Shown: piece by piece, positions 1,815-52,149 of the stretch
Layout of the letters: each line of letters opens with the position of its first letter
How positions within the stretch are numbered: position 1 is the stretch's first letter
Origin: Callorhinchus milii
Lineage: Eukaryota
Direction: 5' to 3'
Length of the DNA stretch: 64,000 bases
Assembly (NCBI RefSeq): GCF_018977255.1
Contig: NW_024704742.1
Coordinates: 89,530,001-89,594,000 of the forward strand
Translations under genes and position numbers: made by a program
Notes under the pieces: generated by a model
What the model was told of the DNA's origin: nothing
The model's input: the letters and a program-made list of their open reading frames with translations, nothing else
Databases searched by the model: none

Positions 1815-2830
1815 ATCAACAACAACAACAAAATTACATTTGTATAGCACCTTTCATGTTGGGAGGACGTCCTGAGGGGGGGATTGGGATTTGGGAGGGT
1901 GGAGGGCAGGGGGGGAAGCAGGATGATCAAAAGCATGGTTGAAAAGGAGGGTCTTGAGATAATAATAATAATCCTTGCATTTGATATAGCGCTTTTCACG
2001 TCTTCTCAATGTCTCAAAGCACTTCACAGAATATGCTGTAAAGTGAATTGACCATATATTTTGGGTGAAACGCGGCAGCCAATTGCGCCAGCAGTGTCGC
2101 ACAAACAGTCGTGGATTGAAAATGATCAATTTATTATTGTTTTGTTTTGGAGGGATTATTATTAGGCGTGTGGAGTAAGGAAGCTTGCCCAAGGTTTTGC
2201 CCTGCCTGGAATTGAACTCAGGTCTCTCACTTGCAAGACAAGTGCTCTAACCACTGAGCTACAGGATTCCAAGATGGGTCTTGAAGGAAGCAAAGGAGGG
2301 GGCGAGGTGGAGGGACTGTGGGATGGAGTTCCAGAGGGTGGTGGCAGAGTGACAGAAGGGCCGCCTGCCAATGGTGGGGTGGGCAAGGTGGGGGACGTGA
2401 AGTAGGCCAGAGCCTTGGGAGCAGAGGGAGCGGGCAGAATGGTAGGGGATTAGGAGGTTGCAGAGGTAAGGGGCAGCTTTGAAGGTAAGAATCAGGATCT
2501 TGAACTGTATTCTCTGTGTGATGGGAAGCCAGTGGAGTCGGGCGAGGATGGGGGTGATAGGGTCATGGAGCCTGGTGCAGGAGAGGACATGGGCTGCAGA
2601 GTTCTGGATGATCTGCAGCCTATGAAGGGAGGAGTTGGGGAGTACCGATAAGCAGGGAGTTTGCGTAGTCAAGCCTCAATGTTAAGAATGCATGTATGAG
2701 GGTTTCAGCGGCCTGCGTTGTGAGACAGTGGCAGAGCTGGGCGATGTTGCAGAGGTGAGGGAAGCAGAGTAGGTCAAGCCACGGATGTAGAGTAGAAAGG
2801 ATAGTTGATCATCAAAAAAGACGCTAAGGT
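1815..2830 (-). mobile_element. L2 3' fragment lying between the CR1 pieces, split by a SINE at 1961-2270
   Basis: RLQIIQNSAAHVL...PITPILARLHWLPITQRIQFKILILTFKA (2270-2830). The L2 resumes at 1960 and ends in the tail plus (TTG)n at about 1815. Confidence 0.92.
1961..2270 (-). mobile_element. Young tRNA-Ala-derived SINE, short form
   Basis: A box TAGCTCAGTGG, B box GAGTTCAATTCC, Deu-like 3' body, stem-loop tail, (TTA)n. AGAT is present on both flanks. Confidence 0.93.
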
Positions 2831-4200
2831 GAAAGGCCTTACTGAAATCCAGATATACAACGTCCACAACCTTACCTTTATCGAGCTCCCTTGTCCCACT
2901 GTCAAAGAAAACCAGTAAATTAGATTGGCAAGACCTCCTCTTCATGAACCCATATTGTCTATCATTTATGACTTTATTTCTGTCCAGATGCTCCATGATT
3001 TTATCCTTAATAAGAGTTTCCTGGGTCACTTTTGTTAACTTTCTTAAAAATAGAAGTAACATCTAGCTTTCTCCAGTCCTCCAGCACCTCTCCAGTATTC
3101 AGTTATTTTTGAAAGATTTGTGCCAGCATTTCTGCGACTTTCTCCCTTAGTTCCTTAAGGATCCTTGAATGCAATTTATCTGACACCTGGGATTTATTTA
3201 CCTTACGTTTACACAGCTGTTTGGCAACCATGCTGGTAGTGATATGAATAGTGTTGCAACTTTTCTCAGCGACATCCATGAGTTCTCTTTCCAGATCAGG
3301 TAAGTTACCCATCTCCTCCTTGGTAAAGACTGATGCAAAAAACTTATTTAGCACTATTGCAGCCTGTGCAGCATTATTTGTCATGTTCTCTCCTGAACCC
3401 ACCTTCAGTGGCCCTATTCCATTGCTTGTTTTTCTTTTACTCTTAATGTAATGTGAAAAACTTTTTGTTATTGTTCTTCACATCTCTTGCCATGTTCAAT
3501 TCAAAGCTTTTCTTTACCATTCTGATGCCTTTTTTGCAGTCCTGGTATGCCTTCTAGTATTGAATCCAACTTAATTATGTGCCATTTTCCTTCATGGTCT
3601 TAAATGCCTTTTATTTTCCTCTTTATAATTTACTTTGTAGCCCCATCCAACCAGGCAGGAATGCCTTTAAGCTTGGTATCTTTGCTTCTCATGGGTACAC
3701 ATTGTTCCATTGCCTTCATAATCACCTCCTTGAAGGAACTCCATAGGTCCTCCACTCCCATTGCCACTCCCTGCCAGGCCCACTCCGACGAGACTTCTCA
3801 ACTGCACAAAGTCAGTCCTCTTGAAATTTGGCAGTTCTGTTTGGGGTTTTTATAACCTCACCAATTCTTGTGATGTCAAATATGACTGCATTGTGATCGC
3901 TGTTGCTTAATGCTTCTGCCACCTTTATGTTGGAGATTTGGTCATCCCTGTGGCTCATTATCAAATCCAAGATGTTATCTCCCCTTGTTGGCTCTTTTAC
4001 AAACTGTGTCATAAAACAGTCTTCCCTTAACTCTAGAAACCTCTTCCCTATCTTACCAGTAGACACATTATTATCCCAATCAATTACGGGTTAGCTAAAA
4101 TCTCCAACTACTATGGTTGATCCCTTACTAGTGGCCTTCCTTATTTCATCCCACAGTTCCAGATCAAGGCTTTCACCCTGGCTTGGGGGTCTAAAGCAAA
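2830..4200 (-). mobile_element. CR1 LINE ORF2 fragment (APE C-half to start of RT)
   Basis: VVGDF...FMTQFVKEPTRGDNILDLIM...SDHNAV, LNKFFASVFTKE, LHSRILKEL, QYGFMKRRSCQSNLL...VDVVYLDFSKAF (ORFs 3812-4066, 3103-3402, 2682-3062). Confidence 0.95.
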
Positions 4201-4750: not shown

Positions 4751-6220
4751 CCACAAAATTATTCTCCAATTGAGTTGGAGACGAGTTCTGGCAGGTCAGG
4801 GTGACACACTCCCGGTGGTTCTTGTCTGAAACAAAGGCAATGAATGTTTTCTTTTGTTTCAACCAAAAATTACACATATGCTTAGAATGCTGAGACATGC
4901 TATTTCAGTGAAAACAGTGTTATACCACTAGTTTAAAATTAGGAGCAAAGATCAAAGAAACAACATCAAAGAACTTTCCCTTTCAAGACATAATCAAACC
5001 TGAACTCTTTGTTTATTCTTGATACCGGAGAATAGTAGCAAATAAAATGGATTCAGACACTGTGGGAATGAAATTGTACCCAGTCATAGTCTGTAAGATC
5101 AATTTGTCTGAGAATTTAAGATGACACAGAAATATAGAAACGACTTAAATTTGTCTCTATCTGGAAGCCAGTTCTTTCCAGAAATTTGGAAATATATTTT
5201 GCTTCCACCACCCACCCACCCCCCATCCCCCCACACTCAGACACTTATAAAATCTATCTTTTCAACCGTGCTTTTGGTCACACACACCCTCCCCACCTCC
5301 CTACCCTCCCCCACTTCCTTCTCCAGCTCAAGATCCCAATGTTCTGAGGTGCCATTCCGACATGAAAGGCACTATAAAAATTTAAATTATTGCTGCTGTT
5401 GTGCCTCCATAATTTTCTCTTCTCAATAATACCCGTCAAGTAGTTATATTATATTTAGAATTGATATTTACCTTTGCCTAAATGACATCTCCGTGTTTCA
5501 TACCAATGTGAATAGTTCAGGTTTTGCTCTTCAGAAAATAAACATTTAAAAATAAGTCTGACTGAACTTTGAATCAGTCTCGCTTGCTCCATATTTTAAT
5601 GATAAGGCAATCAGTTCAAGTTAACAACACTGCAGTAAGTAGTATAATAGTTTAATCTGCCCAATCTGTTCCAAACATCATTTTGGGTTATGGGCCAGTT
5701 TGTCATTCTGTTTCTGTGCAAAATATTGGGGGGTACATACTTTCCAACAGTATATGTGACTTTCAATAAAGTGTATTTTGGGCACATAAATTGAGGATGC
5801 CAGTCACATTACTGAGCGTCTGTCTACTTCTTGACCTGTTCAAGGGACATATTCCCTGAAGCAGATGAACAATTCCCCCTTAAATGAAAATGCCCATTAA
5901 CTATGTCTTTAAACCTTTGTGCATCCTAGTTTAATATGGAGCATTATGTTTCACTGGCAGCTGGCGGTAAAAGACAAAATGAATAGATTGCCACCAGACT
6001 CTGATGGTCTTATTTCCTTTAACTTTTTACTCTACGTCAATTGTTTCTTTCCGGTTCAACAGGACAAAGGACACAACCAGTTGCTCCACTCTGCAAGACT
6101 GATTCAGATTGCTGTTGTATCCCGTGTCTGGCCTGGTTTCAGAATATAGAAAAATATGTAAGCAATGAAGACTTTACATCTATCAAGTTCATTCTGACCA
6201 CAGGCCATATACAACATGTT

Positions 6221-6630
6221 AGTGACAGCCTGGCTCAGTTGGTGCACTCTTGGCTCTGAGTCAAAAGGTAGTGTGGGTTGAAGACCATGATGTGACTTTA
6301 AGCTAAATGTCTAGGCTAGTATTCCAGCGCTGGTGAGTTGTCTGGTGCCATTCTTTAAATCCGAGGTCCCCTTGCCTGTTTATCTTAAAGATTCCATGGA
6401 ACTAATTGAAAAGAAAAGGGAGTTTATCCCTGATGTCCTTGGCAACAATCCCTTGATTAATTGATCATTCACCTCATGGCTGTTTGTGGGACATTCAGGG
6501 CACAAATTGGCAACTGTGTTTGCCTACAGAATAAACAGTTACTACACTTGCCAGAAATTCCCTGCAAAGCGCTTTGAAAAGTTTCAACATTTTAGGCACT
6601 ATGATAGTATAATTATTATTTATTGTTGTG
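6221..6630 (+). mobile_element. Old Deu-domain SINE (SacSINE1-like), full length
   Basis: Head GTGACAGCCTGGCTCAGTTGGT...CTCTGAGTCA, body and tail colinear with 18059-18500. Confidence 0.8.
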
Positions 6631-19548: not shown

Positions 19549-19782
19549 CAATCTGACCTTGGTTTTAACATCTCATTTAATGGACAGATCTGTTCTCAGT
19601 TGTGCAGGAATATGAAATCTATTTTACCTCAGCAACAGACTCCACATGCCGTCATGCTATCTTGACAAAGGTTGTGTTCTTATGCATGAAAGATATGAAA
19701 CCAATTTATAATTTTACCTTTTCCTGATCACCATTTACACCTGCAGAAGACAAGCCACTAAGGGAACAGAGGCCAGACAAAT

Positions 19783-20150
19783 AATAATAATATCCTTGCA
19801 TTTGATATAGCACCTTAAAACATGTTTCAAAGCAAGTCATAAAATATATTGTAAAGTGGATTGACTGTATATCTTGTGGGCGAAATGCAGCAGCCAATTG
19901 TGCACAGCAGTGTTCACAAACAAATTATGACCAAATTATTATTATTTTTTTGAAGGGATTATTACCCCAGAAAAGCGATCTGTGAATCAACTGACAATGT
20001 TCCTACGTCTGCAAAGTAAACAGAGGATACCAGACGATATTTATTGTGGAGTAAGGAAATCTTGCCCAATGTTTCACCTTGCCCGGGAATTGAACCCAAG
20101 TCTTTTCGCTTGCGAAGCGAGTGCTCTAACCACTGAGCTACAGGACCCCA
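19783..20150 (-). mobile_element. tRNA-Ala SINE, long form
   Basis: Head GGGGTCCTGTAGCTCAGTGGTTAGAGCACTCGCTTCGCAAGCG, long-form middle segment, tail with (TTA)n. Confidence 0.9.
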
Positions 20151-20199
20151 CATGGGGATGGGGTGGTGGAATGGGGATGAGGGTGGGGCGGGGCAGTGG

Positions 20200-20990
20200 T
20201 TAGTATTTCCGATAGGGCTTCTGGAAATCTCCGGTGTTGAGCCAGGGTCTAGGCTGGTTGCCGAACATCTCGATGTCATGGGTCACGCACACGGCCAGTG
20301 CTCATATGGTGGCCTTGATCTGGTCCAGATCCGGTGACAGTAACTTCTCCTTGTTGTCGCCATCACCCAGCTTCTTTGACTTGAGATACTTGAAGTCCCA
20401 GGTGGGAATGGAGACGCTTTTCTGGGGGTAATAATCCCTTCAAAAAAAAATAATAATTTAATCACTCAATCCATGGCTGTTTGTCAAACATTGCTGTCCA
20501 CAATTGGCTGCCTCATTTCGCCCACAAGATATACAGTCAATTCACTTTACGGTATATTATATGAATTGGCGTACTGGTGCTATCTGACCTGATTTGACCT
20601 CGCACAGGAAGCTCCTCACTCATACTGCCATCGTCTGCGTTCTCTCCATCCAGGTCAGACATGAAGAAGGGCTCGCAGTCCTGGCTGGTTGATTCCTCAT
20701 CCTCACAAACATAACTGAAGAATCATTCATGCAGCTCCACTCCAGGTTCATTCCCGGTCTCCATCCCGGTCTCCGATCTGGCCTCTATCAGCTTCTGGTC
20801 TGTGGCTGGGAAGCTGCCACTGCCGTAAATGGAAGAGCAGCTCTTAGAGAAGGAATCGTCGCGCAGTTTGGGTGCCTCGTCCATGACTTACTCACAGCCT
20901 CCACTTCGACTGCACATTGTGCCGCACAATCTGCGTCTGAGCAATGAGAAGACTTCATCTGTGTTGGGGTTCTCCTCAGGGCCTCTCTAA
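20200..20990 (-). pseudogene. AKT1S1: Disabled, probably processed copy of AKT1S1 (PRAS40, proline-rich AKT1 substrate 1)
   Basis: Manual minus-strand translation. 20415->20200 gives VSIPTWDFKYLKSKKLGDGDNKEKLLSPDLDQIKATI*ALAVCVTHDIEMFGNQPRPWLNTGDFQKPYRKY*, matching the PRAS40 C-terminus as I recall it (PVSVPVWGFK...SPDLDRIAASMRAL...[21 protein letters not shown]). 20730->20570 gives MFV(fs)DEESTSQDCEPFFMSDLDGENADDGSMSEELP, matching [31 protein letters not shown]. In-frame TGA at 20302-20304, frameshifts near 20702 and 20731, SINE fragment at 20415-20563. The 5' limit is uncertain (ATG at 20884). Confidence 0.93.
20415..20563 (+). mobile_element. Internal SINE fragment (no head, no tail) inside the AKT1S1 copy
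   Basis: CGCTTTTCTGGGGGTAATAATCCCTTC...CCCACAAGATATACAGTCAATTCACTTTAC. Confidence 0.88.
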
Positions 20991-21214
20991 AGTAAACCAT
21001 AGAAGCTAAAAGAGTTGCAATGACAGACTAGGACACACATCAGCCACACAAGACATACTGTTCTAGTACATTCATTCTGCTATCTTGGAGCATCCTGGTG
21101 GAAGAGTATGTGCCAGATGTATCAGGCCATCAACTCTGCAGTCAGGTAACACCCAGACAGGGGCACACTGCACGGTGTTTTACAGTAGAGCTGGACACAG
21201 TTTGCAGAGTTATT

Positions 21215-21555
21215 TGTCCCTCTAGTCAATTTATAAATCTTAATTAGACCACATTTGCAGTACTGTGTGTGGTTTTTGTCATGTAATGTATCATTAGAGA
21301 GAGTGTAGTGTAGATTTACCAGGAAGTTACCAGGAATGAGTGGATAGACATATCAAGAAAAATTGGATAGATTGGAGCTTGTGTCTCTAGAGATGATCTC
21401 TGATTGAGAGGGGACCTGAGAGAGGTGTTTATGAAAGAATTTGATGTGGTGGTTGAAATTAGCTTCAATAAGGTGAACATTAATTAATAGGTTGTTTTTG
21501 ACTTGTCGGTGAACCTAAAGCAAGGCAGTATAAATGTAACATTGCAACTTGTAGA
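21215..21555 (+). mobile_element. Decayed CR1 ORF2 C-terminal fragment
   Basis: LYKSLIRPHLQYCVWF...LERV..RFTRKLPGM...LIERGPERGV-type remnants. Confidence 0.75.
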
Positions 21556-37490: not shown

Positions 37491-40294
37491 AAACTTCAGA
37501 ACTGACTCCTGAGGGATGACATTTCTCAGTTAATAATGATTTTATGGTATGAAGCTGGAATCCAGGTTAATTCTGGAAGGTTGCTGCAAATAGACACTTT
37601 AATGCTTCATGATGTTGAAATTAACATAGAAACCGCTTCCTGGCATTTGCGAGAAGTTCCATCTGGGTCTCCATTTACTCTTATTTACGTTGCATTTCAG
37701 AGTGTTCAAAATTCAGCAAATTGTTAAATTCAGTATTAACTTTCAAAAATATCAACTCATTATCAACCCATAATATAGGGCCTTTCATGCCAGAAGGACA
37801 TGATCTCAAAGCTTCACAGGATTTACTGTAAAGTGCACTGACTGTATTTTGTAAGTGGAAACAGCAGTTAGTTTGTGCAAAGCATTGTCCCCAAAACATC
37901 CATGAAGAGAATGATCATTTTTATTTGGGGGATTGTTGGTTTGTCTTTAAGAAAGGCGTGTCAGGGACTGAACATTAATTCTCTCTTTGTCAGGCTGTGT
38001 CTCTTATCATCCTCCATGTAGACAGAAATAACAATTTAGGGAGCACCTACTGCTGATTGTATTCAGAAAAGTTGTTTGATCTGGCAGGTGATGGTAAATC
38101 ACTTCTGACTTTGCCATTGTTCTGCCAGTAGTCTGAGGTGCTAAGATTTTAATGAGCAACTAAAAACTATAAGAACAGAACAAATGTATGTCTGGGTTCC
38201 TATGATAAGAAAGTTGTACATAACCCCTGTGTCCCAGTCCTTGGTTCTCCAACAGTTTATAGTCCGCTCACGGTGGGAAAGTACCGAACACCAGCACAAA
38301 TTATGAAGGCTGCAGGAAACAAGGATTTAAAATAAAACTAAAACAGGATTTTTATCATTGGATCCCAAGGCCACTATCAGACGTTTACTCTGAGATGCAT
38401 AACCTCAGCAAATTCGTGAAATACTGACTATAATGAGCCACACAGTATTCCGGTTATTTTTTTCAAAATGGCAAATGTGTGCCTGGAGTGTGTGGGAAGA
38501 GACCTTACACGATGCTTTTGACATGATTTGGGAATTTGATGAGAACCATACTTTATAAGATCTGAGGGAACAAGCCTATTAACAGTTTAAAATGTGGTCT
38601 CCTGTGAAGATAGGTTAAAATAAAGGACGTGTGCTCCGAGCAATATTCACAGGATCACATGAGATGAGGAAGGCTCTTTAGCCCTTTAGATCCCATTATT
38701 CCAGAATACCATTCTCCCATAAATAATAATAACCCTTGCATTTGATATAGTGCCTCATCCCATCATCATCGGGTCTTAAAGTGCTTCACAGGTTGTATTG
38801 TAAAGTGGTGTGACTGTGTGTTTGGTGGGTGATTACATCATCATGTCCATGACAGCATTTCTTAAATGAGTCTACCATCCTGGTATCAACCATTTTTCCT
38901 GCTAATCTGTTCCAGTTGTTAACTATCCTCTGTATAAAGTAACGCTGATGAATTAGAGGGACTGAACCTAAGTGTACAAACCTTGATGCCTGAACTGAAG
39001 ATGTACTTTGCCAGAAGGGTCAGAGCAAGATGTGATTAATTTTCAAGTGACTCAAATGCATTTATAAACAAGGCAAACAATTGGTAATCTGAACGCTGAA
39101 CATTTTGTCTGATTACAGGGTGACACTGTGAACGACAGATCTCTGGGCCCTGTGACAATTCCTAACTGTCTTACAGTACCAGTGACCTACAGATTACACA
39201 AGGAGGAGACTTCTTACCACAAAAAGGGTATGTTTCAAAAGACGTATCACGACAAGCACGCAGTGAAGCAGAGATCATCTGAATGTGAAAATCGTGCTGA
39301 AAATGATTGTATATCAATCCAGCATTCTATATTTGGTGCAATGAGCGAGTTGATGCCCGATTTATCTGTGTACTGTGCTTGTAGGTTTGGCTGTATAAAG
39401 AGCCTGCTTGAAAGGAATATCAGTGTTGGTGAATCTGCCAGTTCATTTGTGATACACTCCCATATTTCACAACTGCATCTTTTTGACTTGCTGACCTGTA
39501 CCCAGCAAAATCTTACCCACAACAAGTAACTCATTAGAAGCCTGGAATGGAATAAGGGATGTGATGCTGCTTATTGGACTTTGCATTTTGCTTCCTGATA
39601 CAATACGGCGGAAGAAAATTGTATCCGCTATTCCGAGTCCAAAGATAATTCCTTTCATGCCTTCAGGGTTAATGCTCATGAATGCCGTGTGATAGAACAA
39701 TATTGAGTATTCAGAGAAACGCATGAATAATGCTGTCAATTTTATATAAATTCAAATCATGCCTCCCTCAAATGCCTTTAAGTAGGCTTTTAAAAGCTCT
39801 ATAGCAAGTAATAAAGCCAATGCTTTTTCTTTGCAATGTAATCCATATAACGCTACATATTTATTCCACGTAACTTTGCTATGAAAGGAATATTACGTTG
39901 ATCAATATACCTGAAGTTGCTGCCTGTTCATTCAGTACTGTATCCACACAATAATTCCATTTCACATGCATAATTTTGTGGTGTTTGTGTAATGATATAT
40001 TTTTGTTTAATTATAAACATTACCCCGATTCCTGACCATTACTGAACTACTTTGATGTAACATTAATAAGATTTCTCTAATCTTCTCCATAGACTGGTTG
40101 CAAGGTAGTGTGCACTATTGCTACCACTAACTCCTTGTTGAGACACTTAATGCTAAAACCTCATTCTTTGTCTCATTCTTTGCCAAATGGATTTTACAGC
40201 ACTGTGCCTTAAGGTCTGTCGGCACAGAAAATTCATACAATCCACTGAGTAAGTTATTAAGGACCTTAACAAAATGCAGTGTGAATACTTGTTG

Positions 40295-40773: not shown

Positions 40774-41279
40774 TAATTTCACCATTCTGGTTTCATACTT
40801 GTAGCCTTTTCAATCGTTCATCCAATCAGCACATTTTACAACAGATCACCCATTATCACATAGGCTTGACATACATAATCCAGGTGGAAATGACAGGCAC
40901 TCTTCATTTAAAACACGTGGTGTGTGCAGTGCAAATGTAAGCAAATGGCTAAGGGAATTGACAAGGCCCACAATAAAATGGATTCAGAAACTAAAAAGCA
41001 CATATTGATCAGTACAGTCAACACATTAGAGGTGATCTAATTGCAAATATCCTGGGGGAATTTAATCATCAGAGATGCTGATTCCTTGAACACATTATAT
41101 ATCTGTATTTGGTAAAATTTTTGAGGTTGATATACATCAGTCATCACCCACTGTGCACATCCCACCCTCTACTTCTCCAGATATGAAATCAACAAAGAAC
41201 CAACAGTATTTTCCTGCAGATGTAATGCAAAATTTTAACCTACTTGTGGGGAATAATTTGCAAATACCAATCTTATGTG

Positions 41280-41625
41280 AGGATAAAGAAAATAGAACAA
41301 AGAAGGTTGAGAAGAGACATAATAGAGGTGTTGAACATTTTGGAGGTTTTATTAAGATAAATAGGGGCAGTTCTTTCCCACTGCTTAGGAGGTCAGTAAT
41401 TGGAGAGCATATATTGAGATCATCTCCAAAAAAAAGGAAAATATTTATTTTACACACAGAAGGTGATTACGAGATGGGGTACCCCTCCCAAAAATAGTGA
41501 CTAAAACGAAATACGTAATAGCTTTTAAAAGGGAATTGGAGAAATATTTGAAAAAAAGAAAAATGTAAAGGACCATAGGTAAAGAGCAGGGAGTGCGATT
41601 AACTGGAACAAGTAGAGGTCCGTTG
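41280..41625 (+). mobile_element. Decayed CR1 3' fragment
   Basis: RRLRRDIIEVLNILEVLL-type remnant, TTTACACACAGAAGGTG, GCTTTTAAAAGGGAATTGGAGAAATATTTG. Confidence 0.7.
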
Positions 41626-43044
41626 TAACACAATGGTTGGTATTGGCAAAATCCCAACCAGCTCCATGGTGGGGAGCACCGCTGCTATAATGGGGAGTGC
41701 ACGCAGATAGACAAACATCAGCAGGACACAGAAAGTAACATCAGCAGCAACTTTATGACCTGGAAGTTGTCTATTTTGGCTTTCCCCATCCCGGCACTGA
41801 AGATGTACTTCTTCGACTGTGTTTTGGTCATCTTTCCCCTCCCTACTCCATCTCGGCTCCCACCCCAATTCGGTGCCCAGCCAACAATGTTGTGCTTTCA
41901 GATGACCTCCCGATGTGAAAGGCGCGGTATAAATGTAAACTGTATTGTATTTCAGACGACAATGTTGTGGGCTCGCTCATTTCAGATTTTTTTGTTGAGT
42001 AAATGTTGGGGTTGTAAATCAACCCACAGTCTAATAAAGTGCTTTCTTACAGGATGCCATTGCAGTTCCTTCATTGTGTCTGCAGAGTCATGAAGGGCTG
42101 AATAGCCTCCTTCTATTTCACAGTAAAATTCCATGAGTCTATCCTAAAGAAGTAAAGATCACACGGTTTAGTAGACATTCCTAACACCAAATAAATCACC
42201 CAGTTTGCACACGGTGTGAGACTGTCTGCACCAAAGAGGTTTGGACTGAGTTTCTCCAAGCATGTGAAGCAGTGTTGCAATATGCCTTTTCTTCAAGGTA
42301 TGAGGTATCTATTAACATCTCAAAAGAGACAACTCACGTCAATTATGATATTTGTCCTCCTGACCATATACAGATGTGACCTTGATGGAACCAATCTAGT
42401 TTAAACACTACCGAATTGTAATGAGAAGAGATTCCGACAGAAGCTACACTTGCCCAAGAGCCCTTTAAAAGCAGAGCAGGGGAATTAGTTTCCAACTAGT
42501 TTGTCCTCAAGACATGTAAATGCATGATATCATTTATCCTGAGGTGGATTTACTTGTCAAAAGAAATAAAGTAAAATGTTATAAGGTAGAGGCTTGAAAT
42601 ATGGATTTCATCAGCTACTGCTCTGGTGTAAATCATTCAGCACGATTTAAATTCATAAATCAAGACAATTTTCAGGTTCATTATTCAACAAGGCTATGCA
42701 CTACGGTTATTAAAAAATATTTTAATTTTGGTTGTTGTTCAGGAATCCACAGTGGCAGGATAGAATTTTGTGATTGAATAGCTGATTTTGCCTTACTGTT
42801 ATACAGGTGAACTTTATAACTAGACTGCTTTAAATGAATGTTCAATGATTATGCAGCAGTCGTGGAATCAAAAGAAATCTATTTCCTTAAAGTAATATTA
42901 AGTGATTGCAGCAAAAAAATCTTTAAGACTTGCACTGTGTGAGATGGTTCTTAGAGACGCTATGTAATTACAAGATAACAAGTCTTAGAAATAGTAACAA
43001 TCCTTGCATTTGATATAGCGCCTTATCACATTGTAAAGACGTAG

Positions 43045-45369: not shown

Positions 45370-48250
45370 TCCCCTCTCCCCACGATGACCCACGCCAGCG
45401 GCTAACCACATCTCGCTGACCACCAACCCCCCCACCCCTGACGTTCGCTCTTAGTCTCGGCGTGCGCATTTTGGCTGCCGCCATCGACCCGAGCTGCTTC
45501 TCTATGCTGCCCCCACCCCTGGCCTCTACCCTCCATTACTCCTGCTTGGTCCTCCTCTTGCACCGCCCTCCCCAACTCCTAACCCTGTTCGACCATCCCT
45601 CTGCTCCAGCCTGCAAATCCTCCATCAGGCCCACCATGGCAGACGTCACTGGCTGTCCAACAGCAGTCATTCTGACTGCCCTTTCCCCCATTCTCGCCTG
45701 ACCCTAGGGGGGCAACATCTCCTCCTTCATCCACATCCCCACCTTTCCTTTCAGTCCTCCCCTTCATCCCCTCAACCCCCACATTCTGCCACCAATTGTC
45801 CCCTCTGCATTGGCCTACAAAATGTCCGCTCCCTCTCCAACAAAACACTCACCGTTCAAGACATCATTGTCAACAAAAACATTGACATTCTCGCCCTCAC
45901 TGAAATCTCGGCCTATCCCCTTACTCCTCAGGAACTTTCCCCTCCTTTGAACACCTTACCCTTTATTACCCCTCCAACCTTTCCATCAAAATTCTCCTTA
46001 TCTATTGCCCGCCCCAAGCCCTCCCCCATCTTCATCCCCGACATCTCCACCCTCCTATATTCCCTTTCCCTCTGCTCCGAGCGCTTCCTCATCCTAGCCC
46101 ACTTCAACCGTCACTTCATCCCCTCTTGCTCGACCTCCTGACTTCTCCTCCCTCAACCTCACCCTCCACATCCACTCCGCCACCCACATTCGCAGTCACC
46201 TTTCTCAATTTGGTGATCACTCGGAGTCTCACCGTCTCGCACCAACATCGATAAAGTGATCTTGGACCATCACTTCATCTCCCTTAACTCCTCAATCCCT
46301 CTCCCACCACCTCCCAAACCACCTCCGTTTCCCACCACCCCTGGAAAAAAGTCTCCCTCCAACCCCTCCCTCTCAGCTGCCTTGGAGTCATCTGAACTCC
46401 TTGCCCTCTGGGCTTCCTCCCACTATTCTCCTTGGTCACTCTTCTCCACAGCTCCCTCTCCTCCACTCTCGATTCCCTCGCTCCCCTCTCTACCCAAACC
46501 ATCTCCTATTTACATAAGTCACCATGGCATATCAGCCATCTTCGCTCAGATATGTGCTGCTGAATGAACCTAGCTTAAATTGAACTTAATGGTCCATCAG
46601 CAGATTTGGCTGGATCTTATCAAATCCTACCACTGCGCCCTCGCCTCCTCTAAATTGTCGTTCTACTCCAAGACAATCTTGGAAGCCTAGGACAACCCCA
46701 GGCTCCCCTTCTCCATCACAAACCAGCTCCGCCGCCCACCCTCTCATGCCACCCCCATCCTCACCTCCAATGTCAACTGCAAGGCGATTCTGGACTTCCT
46801 CAAATCCAAAGTTAAGGGATCCTCTCAGCTGCCTCTGCCATTCCGTCTACTACACCCTCCCCATCTTCCCCATCCATCCCGACCCCTACCCATGCCTCCT
46901 TGCATACCTTTGAACCTGTCTCGCTCTTCTCTCTCACCACCACTATAACCTGCATGAAACCGACCACCTGCTCCCTCGACCTCATCCCTACCCCTTTCAT
47001 TACCTCCCAGCTCCACCTTCTTGTCTCTTCTCTCACAGACATCATAAACCTCTCCCTGTCCACTAGTACTGTTCCCACCCTATTAAAAATGGCCGTCATC
47101 ACTCCTATGCTCATAAAACCCTCCGTGGAACCATCTGTGCTCTCAAACTACAGCCTCATCTCCAACCTCCCTTTTCTCTCCAAGTTCCTGGAATGAGTTG
47201 TTGCTTCCCAGCTTTGCTCCTTCCTCTCCCGCCACTCCCTTTACAAACCCTCCAATCGGGTTTCCATGCTTCCCACAGCACAGAAACAGCCCTGGTCAAA
47301 GTAACAAATGACATTCTGTCCATCTGGGACCAGGGGTCCCTCTGCCTCCTCATCCTCCTTGACCTCTCTGCTGCCTTCGACACCATTGACAACTGTATCC
47401 TCATACCTTTCCTCTCACCTCAACCTTCATAGCTCTGTCCTTGACCTCACAAGTCCTACCTCACACACCGCCAGCAGTACATCTGCACAAACGGCTTCTC
47501 CTCCCACTCTCACCCAGTCACTTGCGGAGTACCCCAAGGATCCATCCTTGGTCCCCTCCTCTTTCTGATCTACATGCTCCCTCTTGGGGATGTCATCCGT
47601 AGACATGGAGTACATTTCCACATGTATGCAGATAACACCCAACTCTATTTTTCCACCTCTCTTTGCGACCCCCAGTCCCTTGATGTTCTGTCAGCCTGCC
47701 TGTCAGATCTCAGGGGCTGGATGAACTTCCTTCAGCTGAACTTTGGCTCTCATCAACGTCTAAAATCTCACAGCTCTCACCTCCTCCACCTAGCTGACCT
47801 CCTCCTAAAACTCTCCGAACCCGTATGCAACCTAGGCATCAGGTTCGACCCCCAATTATCCTTCCTCCCCCACATCTGGTCCCTCACCAGCACCGCTTTC
47901 TTCCACCTCCGATGAATCACCCGTCTCCGCCAATGCCTCTCCCCAAAACCCGCTGAAACCCTGGTCCATGCCTTTGTCACCTCTCGGCTGGACTACTCCA
48001 ATACCCTTCTCGCTGGTCTCCATCCTGCAGTCTCTCTGCCTCACTCCCTCCCTTGTCTCCTTCAAGACCCATGTCAAGACCCTCCTATTCGACCGTGCTT
48101 TCGATCACCCAGCTTTCCCCCCTGCCCTCCACCATCCCCAATCCCGACTCCCAGCTCGGGTCCGAAACTCTGACGGTCCAGCACCTTGAGACATCCTCCC
48201 GACATGAAAGGCACAATACAAATATCATTTTGTTGTTATTGTTGTTGTAT
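45370..48250 (+). mobile_element. Long decayed L2-clade LINE (APE endonuclease + RT + 3' tail)
   Basis: APE motifs LQNVRSLSNK...DILALTE (about 45810-45905), LILAHFN and DHHFI. RT motifs QSGFHASHSTETALVKVTNDIL, LILLDLSAAFDTID, GVPQGSILGPLLFLIYM and MYADNTQLY. Ends in a stem-loop tail plus (TTG)n. Many stops, frameshifts and internal deletions. Confidence 0.95.
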
Positions 48251-48364
48251 TTTCTTCGCATTTTAAATCTCCAGAATTTGGCAAATTCTTGAACACAATC
48301 TTAATTTTTCTATAGGTTCTTTTAAGAACCTTTCAAGTTCTTTTAAATAAAAGAAAAATTAATC

Positions 48365-51035: not shown

Positions 51036-52149
51036 CGTTGTGAGGTTGCTATCAAACACCATGGAACAAGCAACGACTATCATGATAATTGAACACTCAT
51101 TTTTTAAAGGCAGCAACAGACAGAGTTGGACAGTTGCTCTGTCATCGTCAATGCTGTGAAGACTAGATCAATAACTCTATTGAGACAGGCTGCCACTAAT
51201 ACCGCCCATTTATCTTTGTTCTTGGAGGTCGCAAGGACTCTTCATTAAAAGTCCTTTAGCACCTTTACTTGGTTAATGCATGCAGTCCATCATGGGGCAA
51301 ACAGGTGGTGAAGATGGCAGTAAAAGAGGAGGGAGCAGCTAGGATTTGCCTCAGAGAAAAATGTGGAAATTTTTTAGAAAGTTGCATGAACACAAAGGGC
51401 CAAATGATCCCCTTCATTCTATGCAGAATTGTATTCGTTTGTATGTGAAATTGAAATCAACCACATTGAGGAATCAAACATCATTGCAAACCCACTGCCC
51501 ACTGTCACCAGGAGTTACTTGGCCAGTAATATAAACAATCAACATTCAATAAACATAGGGATTTGTGTTTTTTGTCAGCAATTTTTTCTACCCTGCTTTC
51601 CTGGAGGCATTTGATTCCTTTTTATCTCTATGTTTGTATGTGAAACACAGGCACCAGTTACCCTGCAGTCACTCACCCAAGTGTACATTATTCAGGAGTG
51701 TTTGCAGACTATTTAACTGCATGAAGGGTATCACAACTGAGCCCATTTCATCAAATGGCACCCACACACATGCACAAACATTCTATTAAAGATTGCATCT
51801 TTAACAACTTTCTGGTTCTATACAGCCTAGTGTCTACACTGGATGGTACTTTATCTATTATATCATTGATGGGGCCAACATTTGAAATGCAGTAACTATT
51901 CAAACCAAACCTTGGAACCAAGGTAATTTGCCAGGTGGGAAATGTAGATAACGTTTTGCCTTTGATCTCAATTCAAAGCATTCTTTTTTGTTGCCAATGA
52001 TTATTCCATCACTAGACCAGCAGAAATCAGATACATACCTTTCCATGGCTGTGATGTTCTTTCTCTAATGTGAGTCCAATGCCAAAACTAATCAGTCTGG
52101 AGCCTTCTTCACAAATCATCTGCAGGACATGATTTTGCAGTACTATCAT

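Follow-up and report, generated by a model that had tools for sequence, protein, structure and literature searches.

A 64,000-nucleotide stretch of the Callorhinchus milii genome (the window; this genome is species A below) carries on its minus strand a decayed copy of AKT1S1, the growth-signalling gene for PRAS40, which is interrupted by an antisense SINE fragment and followed by a complete SINE (Table 1). Two frames of the copy match the Pfam family PRAS (PF15798), at 20415-20203 (E 2.5e-17) and 20701-20561 (E 4.7e-10), with 64.2 and 40.6 bits against a curated cut-off of 27, and human PRAS40 (PDB 6sb0_T) is matched at residues 186-256 and 132-162. Among 151 comparison proteins, gathered with a HMMER search and a lungfish query, the best fit is cartilaginous-fish AKT1S1; for the N-terminal part the elephant-shark model P0086 is closest (E 6.6e-29), with sharks at 5e-22 or weaker, and 129 of 177 aligned codons are identical to the full-length elephant-shark form (P0152). 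The accessions of elephant-shark AKT1S1 protein are XP_042201018.1 and V9L8H3. A word-based protein search with a 71-residue piece of the copy recovered 0 of 10 candidates.

Frameshift-aware alignment places the start of homology at about 20902, in codon 86. The block of codons 86-138 (20731..20902, minus strand) scores 137.5, as opposed to a maximum of 34 in 100 shuffles. Codons 1-85 find no match upstream of 20902, where 24-92 of 100 shuffles scored as well as the real sequence, nor in the window as a whole (best i-E 3.3), and the copy is therefore 5'-truncated inside the first coding region. The extent to 20990 given in the preliminary description is for the same reason rejected. By eye, a possible decayed extension can be followed to about 20955.

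Table 1. Features of the AKT1S1 copy and its surroundings, in the order of the copy's strand.
Feature	Position	Strand	Remark
AKT1S1-derived processed pseudogene	20200..20902	-	frameshift-aware alignment to P0086/P0044, ~codons 86-293 of elephant-shark protein
In-frame TAA	20890-20888	-	
12-nt tandem-like gain	near 20752-20785	-	no counterpart in species B
Frameshifting deletion of ~68 nt	20730..20731	-	parent codons 139-161
TOS motif FVMDE	20698..20709	-	one base lost in the Met codon at 20703/20702
Exon junction crossed without intron	20631..20632	-	Asp195 codon, phase 1
7-nt deletion and TAG for Tyr214	20580..20592	-	deletion behind 20590, common to species B; TAG at 20582-20580
149-nt internal SINE fragment	20417..20565	+	antisense to the copy, replaces 9 nt of KSLP; absent in species B
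Exon junction crossed without intron	20343..20344	-	Arg246/Leu247, phase 0
Premature TGA for Arg260	20302..20304	-	present in X1 contig 20125-20444
Akt site, RPWLNT	20233..20250	-	Arg at -3 changed to Trp; Thr kept
Stop codon of the AKT1S1 copy	20202-20200	-	
C-rich stretch, presumed start of 3' UTR	20153..20199	-	47 nt, 66% C
Full-length tRNA-headed SINE, CmiSINE-like	19780..20151	-	(TAT)n tail; same strand as the copy

With codons 1-85 absent, three stops, three frameshifts and one SINE-fragment insert, the copy cannot be a functional AKT1S1. The TOS motif, KSLP and the Akt site serve Raptor binding and phosphorylation by mTORC1 and Akt. For the TOS motif and Thr246 PMC6325617 agrees with the roles stated in the preliminary description. 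That description had listed the one-base loss in TOS near 20702, the SINE fragment in place of KSLP, the RPWLNT reading of the Akt site and the TGA where Arg is expected (elephant-shark AKT1S1 indeed has Arg260). All four lesions are real, but five further ones had been overlooked, and the reading frame is lost before any of the three motifs is reached. Around the ~68-nt deletion species B, represented by run X7, is 43 letters longer than the window (contig letters 636-711 against 20729-20697), while across the 7-nt deletion the two correspond letter for letter (132 against 132, no gap).

Contigs of run X1 reproduce the lesions: one covers 20125-20444 with a single differing letter (at 20341) and another, which spans the site of the lost TOS base, covers 20531-21300 with none and without gaps. 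The lesions are therefore not assembly errors, on the evidence of contigs rather than raw reads and of a run that is possibly the assembly's own source. At 20341 the X1 contig has the parent letter, and the window and species B share the other, a synonymous difference that is either a polymorphism or an error.

An intact parent, distinct from the copy, is seen in runs X5 and X9, both presumed to be RNA. Each has one deep contig, which differs from the copy at 24-25 of 136 letters over 20281-20416 and at 14 of 137, plus the 7-nt gap, over 20566-20702 (10-18% overall). These contigs skip the SINE fragment and have in its place 9 letters that keep KSLP in frame; they stop about 58 nt before the stop codon. 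Since the differing letters agree with P0152 at the codons listed, the deep contigs represent the parent of the copy.

The exon structure of the parent can be read indirectly from contigs and protein models. A parent-like piece in X1 (depth 13.1) spans about 20702-20632 and ends there, whereas X5 and X9 have parent contigs that run on, and the match of a genomic read-through protein (P0009) begins at the same point. This end, which is a reading of one DNA piece from its depth and distance columns, suggests a parental intron inside the Asp195 codon. P0009 also has an intron-like read-through at the point homologous to 20344/20343, where 6 of 21 protein matches begin (at query residue 26), and the elephant-shark models P0086 and P0152 diverge after residue 246. 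From one gene model (P0019) and the lengths of mammalian exons, a third junction presumably lies at about 20715. Nothing interrupts the copy at any of the three points, so that at least two parental intron positions (20632 and 20344) appear to be crossed intron-free. Together with the distinct intact parent transcript, this bears out the earlier suggestion of a hidden AKT1S1/PRAS40 retrocopy whose reading runs through intron regions.

A duplicate made at the DNA level, or a true AKT1S1 gene disfigured by assembly errors with the SINE fragment as an intron, would explain the locus differently. Read on the copy's strand, the fragment does show a GT close to the 5' end and, close to the 3' end, a T-run with AG behind it. 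However, species B lacks it and it takes the place of coding bases, and its identification as an intron is rejected on these grounds. Also, the transcript that is deep in X5 and X9 is a different, intact one, the X1 contigs carry the lesions, and the parental intron positions are crossed. We therefore regard this explanation as very improbable.

The same locus exists in species B, where one 1408-nt contig of X7 is collinear with 21300-20195. Where the window has the SINE fragment, the aligned pieces of this contig are 24 letters apart, which fits 15 plus 9 letters. The two species differ at 67 of 458 letters in the copy (14.6%) and at 107 of 749 in the flanks (14.3%; p 0.87; the lengths of gapped pieces are approximate). 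The copy is therefore old and neutral, as it is found at the same place in species B and has diverged like its surroundings. At the 23 differences listed inside the copy, from a table with 141 further rows, B agrees with the parent in 8 cases and with the window in 15. Of the amino-acid-changing differences, counted by hand in the rows listed, four predate the split of A and B and seven are found in A alone, from which the age of the copy is estimated at about 1.1 to 3.2 times that of the split. A second, short X7 piece (depth ~28) at about 20336-20358 has window letters, including one otherwise specific to A; it is either a chance match or another copy.

Decay of the copy did not single out its regulatory motifs, as the preliminary description had implied. 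Changed residues make up 21 of 88 positions that are invariant across 10 vertebrate proteins and 27 of 89 variable ones (Fisher p 0.40), and 2 of 11 residues of the TOS and Akt motifs as compared to 48 of 177 overall (p 0.74). In simulation the copy's own branch comes to ~12% per site, with an interval of ~7.5-17%. One CpG transition is shown in the copy, at Pro248 (20339). With residue damage even and divergence from species B neutral, motif-targeted decay is rejected: the damage to the motifs is a by-product of random decay. Disablement and neutral evolution of this kind are as expected of a processed pseudogene. Synonymous differences among the 23 rows listed are shared with species B about 9 times and confined to species A about once, an excess behind which a brief phase of selection, soon after the copy arose, could lie hidden.

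It might still be proposed that selection disabled the Raptor, mTORC1 and Akt motifs of a once-functional retrogene or variant, leaving a dominant-negative protein or a regulatory RNA. All three motifs are indeed damaged, and a low-depth contig of X5, a presumed RNA run, is identical to the copy over 20658-20988 (depth 5.6). Such a product, however, would lack a start region, and its frame would be both stopped and shifted before the first motif is reached; the damage is uniform, copy and flanks are equally diverged from species B, and species B does not have the KSLP lesion. We find this proposal hardly credible, even less so than a DNA-level duplicate. We do not accept the low-depth X5 contig as transcription of the copy; it could stem from carried-over DNA or from the intronic RNA of a host gene not seen here.

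The copy lacks a start and a promoter part, its decay since insertion has been neutral, and it therefore encodes nothing. With a probability of roughly 90%, we conclude that 20902-20200 is a dead, 5'-truncated processed pseudogene of AKT1S1, with a shared ortholog in species B and a history of neutral decay. Among the titles and abstract openings of the mainly open-access literature listed, no AKT1S1 pseudogene is reported in fishes.

The SINE fragment that stands in place of KSLP is a later event. Since species B has the copy but not the fragment, its insertion is younger than the shared copy. We found no SINE head, tail or target-site duplication in or around its 149 nt. Among 25 matches in the window, its closest long match is the neighbouring SINE in inverted orientation (13 differences in 140 letters, the next best having 18 in 135), and the two share six non-majority letters, two of which are seen in none of the other copies compared (0 of 24 and 0 of 14). 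Judging from these likenesses, the fragment was probably templated locally, in inverted orientation, from the neighbouring SINE during break repair. Alternatively, both could belong to a subfamily that is rare in this window. The fragment resembles templated or endonuclease-independent break-repair insertions in being devoid of head, tail and target-site duplication, in removing 9 target bases and in having 2 letters in common with the target at one end; local templating is suggested by the low number of differences and the shared non-majority letters. The inverted pair (20417-20565 and 19837-19977) is separated by about 440 nt and differs by 9.3%.

As to its origin, the copy would derive from a spliced AKT1S1 mRNA that a reverse transcriptase, most likely that of a LINE, copied into DNA, as we infer from truncation and intron loss. 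Reverse transcription would have stopped early, near codon 86, and insertion would have happened in an ancestral chimaera, ahead of the split of A and B, to be followed by neutral decay and, in A, by the lineage-specific SINE-fragment insert. In intron loss, 5' truncation and the absence of a promoter part, as well as in stops, frameshifts and neutral decay, the copy is like LINE-made processed pseudogenes as characterised in PMC5470649. It differs from them in having no recognisable poly(A) or target-site duplication. The preliminary description had seen neither, and there is indeed no run of at least six A on the copy's strand in 19790-19400, while the duplication search yielded nothing convincing, only 6-7-nt matches away from the ends; ~12% decay could, however, erase both hallmarks. 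Inspection by eye shows no clear duplication at most of the window's 11 other SINE heads either. The repeats seen in the window are not L1 but L2/CR1-like LINEs and tRNA SINEs, and stringent LINEs require their own 3' tail (PMC3747384, PMC5470649 and PMC4176376). The preliminary description was fair in seeing a puzzle in the combination of stringent CR1 and L2 elements with a missing poly(A), but it saw in the downstream SINE no more than an obstacle, while this SINE may be the answer. The priming site of the copy is what we infer from here on.

The SINE, whose head at about 20151 confirms the reported distance of some 50 nt from the stop, agrees in layout with the description in PMC5499810 (tRNA-Ala head, CORE body, L2-2_CM tail), and from that description its family would be CmiSINE (SINE2-1_CM or SINE2B-1_CM). 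It predates the split of A and B, since a second X7 contig (19400-19865) runs from unique flank into the tail end of the SINE at the same place in B. From the consensus of the window's SINEs it differs by 8.8% outside CpG sites (23/262; interval 5.9-12.8%), which is an upper bound.

One possibility is that L2-type proteins primed on the tail of a sense SINE that was part of the parent's 3' UTR. The insertion would then extend from about 20902 to 19780 and poly(A) would never have been present. A complete same-strand SINE within 100 nt of the stop is expected by chance in 0.9-1.4% of cases, as calculated from the window's 11 other heads, and this SINE is, like the copy, older than the split of A and B. 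Poly(A) is missing after it, and composition shifts from 66% C before the SINE to 39% GC over the 220 nt after it. Elephant-shark SINEs with the L2-2_CM tail have 104 and 34 matches in mRNA 3' UTRs (PMC5499810), and L2 proteins bind the stem-loop of their own tail (PMC4176376). On the other hand, the point estimates (8.8% for the SINE, ~12% for the copy) make the SINE younger, although the intervals overlap, and its family was active at the time, with the copy taking a second SINE insertion later. Furthermore, X1 contains no second AKT1S1 copy at 80% likeness, and the tail of the SINE aligns with the four decayed L2 ends in the window no better than shuffles do (0 of 4 above the shuffle maximum). 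We therefore hold priming on the SINE tail to be a tentative explanation, with the odds somewhat against it.

The other possibility, to which we give about an even chance and hence more weight, is that priming took place further 3', on poly(A) by a relaxed enzyme of L1 or Tx1 type or by template switching, and that the SINE landed later in the copied UTR. In that case the true 3' end would lie beyond 19780, in decayed form. SINEs are dense here, with 26 tail-region matches in 64 kb, the distance of the SINE from its consensus is slightly below the decay of the copy, and the copy's strand has an ATTAAA at 19581. According to PMC4641402, non-mammalian chordates also have retrocopies in numbers that follow L1 and not L2. 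However, a coincidence of position and strand of about 1% is then required, and ATTAAA is followed by no A-run within 19790-19400. No parent contig covers 19592-19719 either, but such a hole proves nothing, and the same holds for the one at 20168-20280.

Close parallels exist for parts of the SINE-tail route. PMC5499810, on CmiSINEs and SacSINE1-CM with L2-2_CM, and PMC4176376, on tail binding by ZfL2, describe mobilisation by stringent L2 elements, and at our locus, too, a complete sense SINE with an intact (TAT)n tail stands at the end. The difference is that here the cargo would be a protein-coding mRNA, of which the SINE would have been a part. In the platypus retroposon made of a snoRNA and an RTE tail (PMC5499810 and PMC3747384), a cellular RNA likewise became mobile via a LINE-type tail, but that RNA is small and reached up to 40,000 copies, whereas AKT1S1 is an mRNA with one copy. 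Among the titles and abstract openings listed, we found no mRNA retrocopies primed on a SINE tail. Retrocopies as such are not rare outside mammals, 472 being given for the coelacanth in PMC5470649.

The dead retrocopy itself is of little weight: two chimaera-type genomes have it in common as an unannotated neutral marker, into which one lineage-specific insertion has gone. Were the SINE-tail route true, it would help to explain how mRNA retrocopies arise in L2/CR1-dominated genomes with tail-requiring enzymes, and SINE insertion into UTRs would be a general route for mRNA retroposition by stringent LINEs in chimaeras. The event seen here would be older than the split of the two chimaera lineages, and the parents of such retrocopies would be enriched for genes with sense SINEs in their 3' UTRs.

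In the rest of the window a Pfam search of 150 of the 179 repeat-free ORFs of at least 58 aa, a search which short exons would escape, identified no host gene. Five ORFs had a match, three to LINE domains and two weakly, below the cut-off, to Toxin_27 (6023-6256, plus strand, E 0.0045) and UVSSA_N (51559-51786, plus strand, E 0.0084), both of which are probably chance matches among 150 frames. Three mostly repeat-free open frames of 135-154 aa on the plus strand (39113-39529, 41090-41497 and 41629-42093) have no Pfam match. A long decayed LINE at 45455-48290 (plus strand; RVT_1, E 4e-10) and a LINE fragment with an endonuclease domain at 2682-4090 (minus strand; E 2e-4) are, by their motifs, what we take to be L2-like and CR1-like, respectively. 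At about 1960-2290 on the minus strand a SINE lies within an L2 fragment and has a 9-nt direct repeat near both of its ends, which makes it one of the few here with a visible duplication.
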